DNA of 64,000 nucleotides from the sequence record PZ386951.1. One strand, 5' to 3'. Shown here piece after piece: positions 26,230 through 28,276 of this stretch (position 1 is the first letter of the stretch; each line of letters starts with the position of its first letter). The position numbers and the translations under genes were made by a program. The notes beneath the pieces are model-generated. The model had not been told where the DNA came from and did not search any database. It worked only from the letters and a program-made list of their open reading frames with translations. Origin of the DNA: a phage.

Positions 26230-26417
26230 TATTCTTCTACATGTTGTTTACGACCTTTCTTATCAATAAAGGTATATTCAACGAATGTTCCAATGTAGTC
26301 TTTATCTACATCATGTGGACTATTAATTGGACATTTAGTACGGCAAATGCGTTCCCATTGACGAATAATTACTGCTTTGTTTTTAGGATCAAACGGATGT
26401 GGGTAATGTACTTTCAT
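26205..26417 (-). CDS. hypothetical protein (70 aa)
   Basis: ORF. Confidence 0.45.
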   Translation of the reverse strand: MKVHYPHPFDPKNKAVIIRQWERICRTKCPINSPHDVDKDYIGTFVEYTFIDKKGRKQHVEEYCLKVTWL

Positions 26418-26868
26418 AATCCACCACTATTAAATCAATATCAGGAGTAAACATGTCGATTAATTTAGAAACCTTATCCCAATCACCGCCAGCAATACCA
26501 CAACCTATGCGTGGAATGTAAATTACCGGTTTAAACAAAAGGGTTTCTGCCTGTAGATTTAATTCTATCATGCAGTTTACTAAAGCACCATAATCAAGAT
26601 TAGGACCTGGTTCGTATTGCGTATACAAGTTATAACATATGCCAAAACCATTAGGTTTATGTTTAAAAACAATAGACATATCGCCTAATTTATCACGAGA
26701 ACCGTACTCAGTAGTGGTTTTATCTATTTCTAAAATTTTGGGATAGGCTCTTGCTAATTGACCCGCTACACCTGAACCCATAGTATGAAAACAATTGCAC
26801 CCGTGCGCAATAATATTACCTTCAAGAAAGAGGGCGACAATATCGCCCTTGATATATTTTACAATCAT
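26389..26868 (-). CDS. macro-domain-like protein (putative ADP-ribose binding/hydrolysis)
   Basis: 159 aa; KGDIVAL...IAHGCNC...MGSGVAGQLARAYP and later PRIGCGIAGG resemble the macro-domain diphosphate-binding loops. Confidence 0.5.
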   Translation of the reverse strand: MIVKYIKGDIVALFLEGNIIAHGCNCFHTMGSGVAGQLARAYPKILEIDKTTTEYGSRDKLGDMSIVFKHKPNGFGICYNLYTQYEPGPNLDYGALVNCMIELNLQAETLLFKPVIYIPRIGCGIAGGDWDKVSKLIDMFTPDIDLIVVDYESTLPTSV

Positions 26869-27212
26869 CTAGTACTCAATCCTCGATTATAAGAATCTAC
26901 CAAACGGTCAACCATTGAATGACAAGCGGCTTTATCTTTCTCCTCCGCAACTGAACATTCTAAAGTATTCCACTTTTTAGCATATCGTTTTAATAATGTA
27001 TCGTTTTTGTATCTGCTTGATTTATCTCTTTCTCCGTCTTTATATGCATATATTAATTTCTGTGCAAATTCAGCTTGGCATGCTTTATTTTTCCCACAAT
27101 AATCTGCCGCAGTGCGGTTTACATATTCTCTAATTTCAGTATATGATGTATCTGCTGACGCAGAAGCAGAAAATGAAATTAATCCTATACATAAAACCAA
27201 AATTTTAGTCAT
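26865..27212 (-). CDS. secreted small protein with Sec signal peptide (115 aa)
   Basis: N-terminus MTKILVLCIGLISFSASASA then mature domain with 4 Cys. Confidence 0.55.
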   Translation of the reverse strand: MTKILVLCIGLISFSASASADTSYTEIREYVNRTAADYCGKNKACQAEFAQKLIYAYKDGERDKSSRYKNDTLLKRYAKKWNTLECSVAEEKDKAACHSMVDRLVDSYNRGLSTR

Positions 27213-27750
27213 TTACTATTTCCAAAAGTTTATTATTTTTAAGGTAATTAGCCTTTTCTAGGACTTCAGAAGCATATTTAGAACCAGCTTTAACATTCCA
27301 TCCCGAATTATAAGAGGATATTGCTTTTCTTATATCGCCCTTATGTATATTTAACCAATAAGAAAGTTCAATGTACGCCCAGGAAGCTGAATTGGATCGT
27401 TTATTCAACATTCTTTTTATTTCAGCATCGGTCATATTATAACCAAGTTCCTTAACTCTTGCTCGCATAGTAGGCAAATAATTTTGGAACATTCCATAAG
27501 CGTGATGCTTTGGTTTAGATTTTAAATTAACTCCGCCAGAGCTTTCTTGCCATAAAATAGCAGCCATTATATGACCTAATCCGCTCTTGTGGATATTTTT
27601 ATGTGTTTTATATTTTCCATCCTTAGAAAACTGTTCCCCGAATTGATACGCGTAACGCATGTTATCGAGTTGGACATTACTGAAAGTATGCTCGGAGCTA
27701 TGTGCCATCATTGAAATGGCCAATAGACCAGCGAGTAGTGCTTTTCTCAT
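27205..27750 (-). CDS. secreted lytic-transglycosylase-like (SLT-domain) protein
   Basis: 181 aa; signal peptide; SLT-like motifs WQESSGG, AYGMFQ, SSYNSG. Confidence 0.55.
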   Translation of the reverse strand: MRKALLAGLLAISMMAHSSEHTFSNVQLDNMRYAYQFGEQFSKDGKYKTHKNIHKSGLGHIMAAILWQESSGGVNLKSKPKHHAYGMFQNYLPTMRARVKELGYNMTDAEIKRMLNKRSNSASWAYIELSYWLNIHKGDIRKAISSYNSGWNVKAGSKYASEVLEKANYLKNNKLLEIVND

Positions 27751-27757
27751 GCTTACC

Positions 27758-28219
27758 TCATTGAGTTTTAATTACTGCTTTAGAAGCCTTTCCTGGTAAA
27801 CGACGACTGTTGATAATTGCCATCCTACATTGAAGTGACGGGTTTTTGAACTTCTCATTAGGTTTACAAACCGTAAATCCAAGCCAAAGATTTCCATCTG
27901 TGATTTCTAAACGTCCAGGACGATATTCAACCCCATCAATAAAATCCTCGTCAATGTCAGGACGTGGAGGCATACTCAGGAATTCATTAACTTCTAAAAC
28001 ATGGTCTTTTATTTTATGGAATAATTCAAAAACATATGTCTCATCAATCTCCCGTTGAATTGCACGATCAAGAAGATGCTGAGAATATTTTAGATGAAAC
28101 GATGAGACCCCTGCTGCTTTTGATGCCTCACGAATCTCATTGTTAATTTGACGAAACTCCGACTCAAAGTGACGACGGAGCTTATTTCGACGGATAAAAA
28201 CTTCTGTGTTGATAGTCAT
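27758..28219 (-). CDS. regB: endoribonuclease RegB
   Basis: 153 aa beginning MTINTEVFIRRNKLRRHFESEF, matching recalled T4 RegB. Confidence 0.85.
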   Translation of the reverse strand: MTINTEVFIRRNKLRRHFESEFRQINNEIREASKAAGVSSFHLKYSQHLLDRAIQREIDETYVFELFHKIKDHVLEVNEFLSMPPRPDIDEDFIDGVEYRPGRLEITDGNLWLGFTVCKPNEKFKNPSLQCRMAIINSRRLPGKASKAVIKTQ

Positions 28220-28246: not shown

Positions 28247-28276
28247 ATTATACCACAGTCAAGAGGAAAAGTAAAC
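28247..28276 (-). promoter_or_regulatory. T4-type early promoter upstream of regB
   Basis: Minus strand GTTTACttttcctcttgactgTGGTATAAT. Confidence 0.6.

Follow-up and report, generated by a model that had tools for sequence, protein, structure and literature searches.

Phage T4 genes vs.1 and vs: a predicted exported SLT-like enzyme and a candidate periplasmic partner annotated as a valyl-tRNA synthetase modifier

The phage DNA of sequence record PZ386951.1, analysed here as a stretch of 64,000 nucleotides (the window), is a T4-type genome with ~98% identity to Tequatrovirus records. On its minus strand, two consecutive open reading frames (ORFs) raise the question of where a widely annotated T4 protein acts. 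The original prediction, made from the sequence, placed at 26865..27750 a Cys-containing protein of 115 amino acids (aa) and an SLT-like protein, and both are present there, on the minus strand. They are the known, named phage T4 genes vs and vs.1. PHROG, Pfam (PF26829) and hundreds of records label the product of the first "valyl-tRNA synthetase modifier", a cytoplasmic role which the original prediction missed. A "periplasmic partner or inhibitor", as the 115-aa protein was then called, is therefore no free guess; it contradicts the standing annotation. Does Vs act on valyl-tRNA synthetase (ValRS) in the cytoplasm, or does it work in the periplasm with the enzyme encoded directly before it?

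The gene vs.1 (27205..27750, minus strand) encodes a precursor of 181 aa, a predicted exported SLT/GH23 lytic transglycosylase with 100% identity to T4 ORF 61.4 (X04567). The gene vs (26865..27212, minus strand) encodes a precursor of 115 aa with 100% identity to T4 Vs, or ORF 60.9, and belongs to phrog_1256 and to PF26829, named 'ValRS_modifier'. A 2-kb stretch around the two genes shares 98-98.6% identity with many T4-like phages. Transcription reads vs.1 (27750..27205) first and vs (27212..26865) second; they overlap by the 8 nucleotides ATGACTAA (27205..27212, minus strand), with the vs start codon inside the 3' end of vs.1. The best reading of the locus, to which we give about an even chance, is that of an early periplasmic lytic transglycosylase, Vs.1, made together with an exported partner or modulator, Vs.

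The translation of vs.1 contains the motifs ILWQESSGG, AYGMFQ and SSYNSG. Against Pfam PF01464 (SLT) the protein scores 25.1 bits (E 1.4e-5), above the gathering cut-off of 21.3, and SLT is the only family matched by its relatives, 28 of 30 of them at E <= 0.01 (best 1.3e-7). The motifs were compared in an alignment of 30 sequences, with identity down to 40%: E69, G86-x-F88-Q89, Y147-N148-x-G150 and Y159 are invariant, and S70 is nearly so. Family-1 lytic transglycosylases (the Slt70 family) are marked by the motifs ES, GLMQ and AYNxG. Their counterparts in Vs.1 are Glu69-Ser70 (codons 27541..27546, minus strand), with Glu69 as the putative single catalytic acid, then motif II, G86-M-F88-Q89 (27484..27495, minus strand), and motif III, Y147-N148-S-G150 (27301..27312, minus strand). 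No Asp is invariant among the 30 aligned sequences, and a single-acid transglycosylase would thus fit Vs.1 better than a hydrolytic goose-type lysozyme.

The AlphaFold2 (AF2) model of Vs.1 has a mean confidence (pLDDT) of 88.7 and a predicted TM score (pTM) of 0.83, residues 1-20 lying at ~54. In a Foldseek search of the PDB its best matches are all GH23 proteins, MltD coming first (E 7.7e-3, probability 1.0); the top matches comprise MltD, ostrich g-type lysozyme, a GH23 chitinase, Slt, LtgA, phi6 P5 and T7 gp16. Aligned by hhalign to the C-domain of E. coli Slt70, Vs.1 places WQES over RQES and YGMFQ over SGLMQ, at a score that is not statistically significant, and a search of NCBIfam returned nothing meaningful. 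The SLT homology proposed for the 181-aa protein is thereby borne out by Pfam score, by relatives and by fold. We are fairly confident that Vs.1 is an exported and active GH23 enzyme; its motifs make it most likely a lytic transglycosylase, a chemistry predicted from the residues that it keeps.

The similarity itself is already on record. It was reported for six T4-like phages (Nolan et al. 2006), and a passage of that article cites earlier PSI-BLAST matches to SLT/lysozyme proteins from the T4 genome review of Miller 2003. What had been presented as a notable, separate muralytic enzyme is indeed distinct from e and gp5, but it is T4 vs.1, with an SLT similarity published in 2003/2006. The 2020 paper on Spackle gives T4 two lysozyme genes, e and 5, and our full-text literature searches turned up no experimental work on Vs.1. 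Exported SLT proteins of the Vs.1 kind are present in ~2,000 phage records, among Straboviridae (including T4-like phages of Aeromonas and Acinetobacter), Ackermannviridae and Felixounavirus, and the question is therefore a general one. The labels of Vs.1 have drifted in these records, where it is variously called endoribonuclease, RegB, lytic tail protein, C-type lysozyme or putative lysin.

Both proteins start in the manner of exported ones. Signal peptides were called with a home-made heuristic that looks for a positive n-region, a hydrophobic h-region and small residues at positions -3/-1. The N-termini of Vs.1 and Vs each show an n-region containing K/R, then a hydrophobic stretch of 13-17 residues without charges, and last a small-x-small site. 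In Vs.1 the predicted signal peptide covers aa 1-18 (MRKALLAGLLAISMMAHS, followed by SEHT; codons 27697..27750, minus strand) and divides into MRK-ALLAGLLAISMMA-HS/SEHT, with the single site A-H-S18/S. In Vs it covers aa 1-20 (MTKILVLCIGLISFSASASA, followed by DTSY; codons 27153..27212, minus strand) and divides into MTK-ILVLCIGLISFSASASA/DTSY, with the site A-S-A20/D; the best 10-residue Kyte-Doolittle mean of its h-region is 3.04. Applied to 100 non-overlapping ORFs of the window, the heuristic flagged three, namely rI, vs and vs.1. The first of them is a fair positive control because rI carries a known cleavable signal peptide (PMC8385771).

These N-termini are conserved. A signal-like start is found in 79 of 81 Vs.1 relatives, those of Ackermannviridae and Felixounavirus included, and the two exceptions are shortened entries. 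Among the relatives of Vs, 15 of 18 pass the heuristic, the other three failing only through a Pro within the h-region; judged by eye, all 18 qualify. Being kept while the rest of the sequence drifts, the signal-like N-terminus is not a chance feature. The distant Vs relative P0096 begins with MKKLFVLLIVFALSGC, a canonical lipoprotein signal with the lipobox LSGC. Heuristic and conservation together support the Sec-type signal peptides first noticed on the two proteins.

AF2 leaves the N-termini of both proteins outside the confident folds, with residues 1-5 and 7-20 of Vs at a pLDDT <50. After cleavage at the predicted sites, mature Vs would measure 95 aa and 11.05 kDa (pI 8.9; precursor 13.06 kDa), and mature Vs.1 163 aa and 18.8 kDa, being basic as well (pI 9.65). 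N-terminally His-tagged Vs is insoluble in the E. coli cytoplasm (PMC8076793). Taking together the signal peptide, the lipobox variant, the four Cys described below, the gene company and this insolubility, we consider it quite probable that Vs is exported; export and cleavage of the two proteins in infected cells are predicted from their sequences.

A minor point concerns Aeromonas phage 31.2 (KY290951; L011:1489-2040), whose deposited vs.1-like coding sequence (139 aa) is probably shortened at its start. Starting instead from the in-frame ATG at L011 position 1489 would prepend MRFLAILILLFTSHVFA... and so recover the signal peptide present in all other members.

Vs itself belongs to a small family confined to phages. 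It matches phrog_1256 at E 1.7e-39, its relatives carry the precomputed PF26829, and at 90% identity the family falls into 13 clusters. Wider relatives of Vs were sought with a profile among 1.84 billion representatives, which yielded 8 proteins, all from this same small family, and a Pfam scan gave no match for Vs. Records of Vs often read 'valyl-tRNA synthetase', as though it were the enzyme itself.

Of the five Cys of Vs, one belongs to the signal peptide and the other four to the mature protein. The codons of these four lie within 26922..27098 (minus strand), at 27096-27098 (C39), 27078-27080 (C45), 26955-26957 (C86) and 26922-26924 (C97). All four residues are invariant in 13 Vs sequences and are kept in relatives at 19-35% identity. 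The AF2 model (pLDDT 84.6) is a four-helix bundle formed by residues 21-115, with helices at 22-39, 43-63, 70-86 and 91-112 and no structure for 1-20. The Cys sit at the two helix-hairpin loops, spaced CX5-6C and CX9-10C. Such spacings are untypical of zinc knuckles, and as modelled the pattern resembles disulfide staples rather than a knuckle; in the periplasm Vs would probably be oxidised. In a structure search, no solved or predicted viral structure outside the Vs family resembled the model.

The two genes stay together across phages. In six of six lineages examined (T4 with the window, L004, L005, L007/L008, L009 and an Acinetobacter phage), vs stands directly after vs.1, and the stop and start codons overlap or abut in all six, the five non-T4 junctions reading TAATG, TAAATG or ATGA. 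Across these lineages Vs.1 retains 40-68% identity and mature Vs 19-35%, and the flanking genes change while vs keeps its place. To this conserved adjacency is added a shared expression class: in T4, vs and vs.1 are both classed as early RNA / middle protein, and both proteins were detected in T4 proteomics, hence both products are found in infected cells. Two sub-clades of Vs match ~800 and ~365 phage records; in the second, several records have an annotated lytic transglycosylase touching the border of the match. The conserved adjacency backs the partner half of the original "partner or inhibitor"; inhibition is a tentative idea.

One line of reasoning was rejected on the way, namely that a near relative has vs.1 without vs and that Vs is consequently no immunity protein. 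L006:4520-4830 turned out to be a run of N, a metagenome scaffold gap, inside vs.

Fitness data come from HIDEN-SEQ, a transposon screen of T4 (2025 preprint, doi 10.1101/2025.11.20.689424). No T4 gene is more strongly depleted there in M9Glc versus LB than vs, and on M9Glc a clean vs knockout shows poor plating; the authors interpret the defect in terms of ValRS and nutrient limitation, and describe the biological role of ValRS modification as still unknown. In table S8 of that work vs (32 TA sites) has mean counts of 26.6 in LB and 5.0 in M9Glc (log2 fold change -2.19, q 0), and vs.1 (51 TA sites) 22.6 and 11.9 (log2 fold change -0.87, q 0.155): in M9Glc, losing vs costs more than losing vs.1. 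The mean LB counts of the neighbours are 179 for regB, 652 for vs.3, 265 for vs.4, 290 for tk.4 and 767 for tk.3. In this neighbourhood only vs and vs.1 are thus ~10-fold under-represented in LB (26.6 and 22.6 against 179-767 for the non-essential neighbours), which points to a fitness cost in rich medium too, a matter on which the preprint is silent. The insertion pattern fits three readings, that Vs restrains Vs.1, that both act in one pathway, or that Vs acts by itself and vs.1 insertions are partly polar, and it therefore does not decide among them. The minimal-medium phenotype of vs is a simple genetic handle for choosing between readings.

We now propose a course of events for the two proteins. 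The genes regB, vs.1, vs and tk.4 would be transcribed together, early in infection, with vs.1 and vs as a conserved two-gene unit both of whose products go to the periplasm. Vs.1 would be made as a precursor of 181 aa, exported by the Sec route and cleaved after Ser18, giving a basic, soluble SLT/GH23 enzyme of 18.8 kDa distinct from the endolysin e and the tail lysozyme gp5. Glu69 would serve as its single catalytic acid; as such an enzyme, Vs.1 should cut the MurNAc-GlcNAc bond and form 1,6-anhydroMurNAc. Vs, a precursor of 115 aa, would likewise be exported, and cleaved after Ala20 to a four-helix bundle of 11.05 kDa, probably with two disulfides. In the periplasm, mature Vs would be a partner or modulator of Vs.1, rather than acting on cytoplasmic valyl-tRNA synthetase.

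For the manner of this action we favour a restraining or targeting role, comparable to that of Spackle towards the gp5 lysozyme. T4 Spackle (gp61.3) is a small, early, helical periplasmic protein with a signal peptide, and it inhibits the gp5 tail lysozyme (PMC7650644); its control of a muralytic enzyme is the functional model for Vs. The parts of the proposal are not equally firm. Whether Vs works with Vs.1 seems to us evenly balanced, and that it restrains Vs.1 rather than aiding it is a tentative idea, drawn from the analogy and somewhat unlikely to hold.

A number of points weigh against the proposed pairing. The signal-peptide calls for Vs and Vs.1 rest on our heuristic and not on SignalP. 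The physical contact of Vs with Vs.1 and the direction of its effect are what we infer, and Vs resembles no known inhibitor of lysozymes or transglycosylases, either in sequence or in fold. Mature Vs and Vs.1 are both basic (pI 8.9 and 9.65), so that a tight complex held by charge is not favoured; being basic, Vs would bind readily to the acidic ValRS or to tRNA. Gene overlaps are the rule in this T4 region: the vs stop codon is itself overlapped by the ATG of tk.4. Tight packing being common in T4 early regions, the vs.1/vs overlap alone is weak evidence. The Vs.1-like genes of Ackermannviridae, Felixounavirus and Aeromonas phage 31.2 come with no recognisable Vs, so that Vs is not an obligatory companion of such enzymes. 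As to fitness, the lower insertion counts of vs.1 could be polarity on vs, and the M9Glc defect of the vs knockout equally suits a translation role under nutrient limitation.

The enzyme half of the proposal meets objections of its own. The Foldseek values of Vs.1 are marginal (E 8e-3 to 0.3 and TM 0.4-0.54, at probability 0.9-1.0, over the top ~20). Searched against PDB sequences, the single Vs.1 sequence found no match, and a profile search found one goose-type lysozyme at E 0.49, over the stretch of motif III only. From these near-empty searches, Vs.1 is a divergent member of SLT/GH23. Against a periplasmic Vs, lastly, T4 genetics and biochemistry of the 1960s-80s tie the vs locus to a peptide of ~10 kDa that binds cytoplasmic ValRS.

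The alternative that survives best is that the standing annotation is right and Vs is tau, a protein that binds ValRS in the cytoplasm and alters its stability and its affinity for tRNA. Adjacency to vs.1 would then be genome packing, the N-terminus would be unused or only partly used for export, and the Cys would bind metal or be structural. It is favoured by the label that Vs bears in PHROG, Pfam PF26829 and hundreds of records, as well as by the M9Glc depletion of vs and the poor plating of its knockout, taken by the HIDEN-SEQ authors as nutrient-dependent. A basic mature Vs would suit an acidic synthetase-tRNA complex; in addition, loops 1-2 and 3-4 lie at the same end of the modelled bundle, where the four Cys could form a metal site. 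Classical genetic work reports in vivo links between vs and valS. The size of tau, ~10 kDa, counts against this reading: it is closer to predicted mature Vs (11.05 kDa) than to the 13.06-kDa precursor, and such a match would imply that the protein had crossed the membrane, which sharpens the paradox.

Contact with ValRS requires a cytoplasmic location, and the sequence of Vs predicts export instead. A strong n/h/c signal with an AxA site recurs in 18 of 18 family members despite the drift of their sequences, one member having a lipobox, and the tagged protein is insoluble in the cytoplasm (PMC8076793). Vs always adjoins an enzyme with a signal peptide, and in five lineages another signal-peptide protein comes next. 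The spacings of its Cys are unlike those of zinc knuckles, and ORF 60.9 was unnamed in the 1986 T4 sequence record. Provided that vs has been correctly assigned to ORF 60.9, Vs and classical tau share one named gene; unlike tau, which is cytoplasmic, Vs has a predicted export signal, Cys expected to be oxidised and a place in a run of envelope genes. The predicted export of Vs is hard to square with a cytoplasmic ValRS-binding role, and in full-text literature searches we found no paper noting a signal peptide in Vs. We hold the classical role to be unlikely, and count it as a serious rival because the minimal-medium phenotype suits it and contact between Vs and Vs.1 is deduced.

Less probable, in our estimate, is that both proteins reach the periplasm and act there independently, Vs.1 remodelling or weakening peptidoglycan and Vs having some other envelope job, such as superinfection exclusion, a part in lysis timing alongside rI, which is encoded nearby, or protection from an envelope system of the host. 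The Vs.1 homologues without Vs noted above would agree with this, as would the much faster evolution of Vs (19-35% identity, versus 40-68% for Vs.1) and the absence of charge complementarity between two basic proteins. So would the gene content of some relatives. In five non-T4 lineages a third signal-peptide protein, of 120-141 aa with two conserved Cys (phrog_4957, no Pfam match), is placed between vs and the tk.4 macro gene: L004:4724-5143, L005:778-1185, L007:4836-5246, L009:4894-5256 and L012:2288-2713. A 99-aa lipoprotein or transmembrane protein (phrog_6298) lies at L007:5233-5532 and L012:2713-3012, and after it the rI antiholin, at L008:1711-1983 and L012:3009-3287. The run vs.1, vs, phrog_4957, 99-aa protein and rI in L007, L008 and L012 resembles a general island of envelope genes. 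Independent roles would leave two observations aside: vs comes directly after vs.1 in every examined lineage that has vs, though the flanking genes change, and insertion mutants of vs and vs.1 are alike in LB and unlike their neighbours.

It is very unlikely that Vs.1 is no active lytic transglycosylase but instead a g-type lysozyme acting by hydrolysis, a GH23 enzyme of the chitinase kind or a protein that binds peptidoglycan without catalysis: its weak likeness to solved enzymes (Foldseek E >= 7.7e-3 with TM 0.46-0.54, PDB profile E 0.49, Slt70 hhalign not significant) and the g-type lysozyme and GH23 chitinase among its top folds would allow this, and against it stand three family-1 motifs invariant in 30 sequences down to 40% identity, the lack of an invariant Asp for activating water, and SLT as the sole Pfam family matched, in 28 of 30 members.

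Coming back to the exported pair, Vs.1 can be set beside known enzymes. It shares with E. coli Slt70, P. aeruginosa MltD/Slt and Neisseria LtgA the Pfam SLT domain, the ES, GLMQ-like and AYNxG-like motifs and a lysozyme-like helical fold, and its signal peptide predicts the periplasmic location of family-1 lytic transglycosylases. In contrast to them, it consists of the catalytic domain alone (163 aa), lacking any superhelical, LysM or lipid-anchor module; its sequence is highly divergent, only just passing the Pfam cut-off and finding no PDB sequence match at E <0.1; and its source is a virulent phage, of which it is an early product. T7 gp16 and phi6 P5, entry proteins of SLT type, are virion components. 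They have the GH23-type fold and are among the fold and PHROG matches of Vs.1, which differs from them in having its own signal peptide and in its class of early RNA / middle protein.

Vs, for its part, is small and predicted to be exported, as are the lysozyme inhibitors Ivy, MliC/PliC, PliG, PliI and LprI/DUF1311; some of these have conserved Cys, and LprI is helical and of similar size. Unlike them, Vs has no match to their families in the Pfam scan and no fold match. We considered Vs as an LprI/DUF1311 inhibitor in particular and rejected it: a profile comparison with E. coli YecT, a bona fide LprI, aligns only the signal peptides, at a probability of 3%.

In its boldest form, the proposal would make Vs a Sec-exported, disulfide-stapled four-helix protein with no fold relatives, which controls, in the periplasm, Vs.1, a third and hitherto overlooked muralytic enzyme of T4. 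The link between tau and ValRS would then come from a mis-assignment of the vs locus to ORF 60.9, or from association of a small basic protein with the synthetase after cell breakage, and the minimal-medium defect would be the work of unrestrained Vs.1. As a whole this chain is unlikely to be right.

The analysis adds to the original prediction by documenting that the annotation of vs conflicts with the sequence and structure of its product and with the genes around it, and the old ValRS label of Vs needs an experimental re-check. T4 is the reference phage, and its annotations have been copied into thousands of genomes. Many of the ~800 and ~365 records of Vs bear the label "valyl-tRNA synthetase (modifier)"; a periplasmic Vs would make this label mistaken or incomplete and would reopen the puzzle of ValRS modification. 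If the enzyme is what it seems, T4 has a third muralytic activity, early and exported on its own signal peptide, which would have consequences for the timing and the inhibition of lysis, for superinfection and for the state of the envelope during infection.

Around the pair, regB (27758..28219, minus strand; Pfam REGB_T4, E 6e-69) lies upstream of vs.1, and tk.4, coding for a Macro-domain protein (26389..26868, minus strand; Pfam E 6e-8), lies downstream of vs. The latter is AdfM, the anti-DarTG2 macrodomain factor (2025 preprint, doi 10.1101/2025.11.20.689424). A consensus scan finds ahead of regB a strong promoter-like site, TTTACT-17-TATAAT with an upstream TG (extended -10), at 28247..28275 on the minus strand; it is probably the early promoter of a regB-vs.1-vs-tk.4 transcript. 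The same kind of scan finds no terminator-like site between vs.1 and vs. It also reveals a G+C-rich 8-bp hairpin, AGGGCGATATTGTCGCCCT (26831-26849, minus strand), 16 nucleotides past the vs stop and within the first tk.4 codons, where it could affect tk.4 translation or mRNA stability.

The phrog_4957 protein has no homologue in T4 or in this window. In L007/L008 and L012 the genes vs.1, vs, phrog_4957, the 99-aa protein and rI form an uninterrupted run of envelope-targeted products. More broadly, the vs.1/vs neighbourhood mixes anti-defence, RNA and envelope functions. At L004:2800-3081, two genes upstream of regB and in the position of T4 vs.4, Pfam identifies Acb2_Tad1_hairpin, an anti-CBASS sponge domain, and the L004 gene at the vs.6 position carries Pfam Gly_radical.

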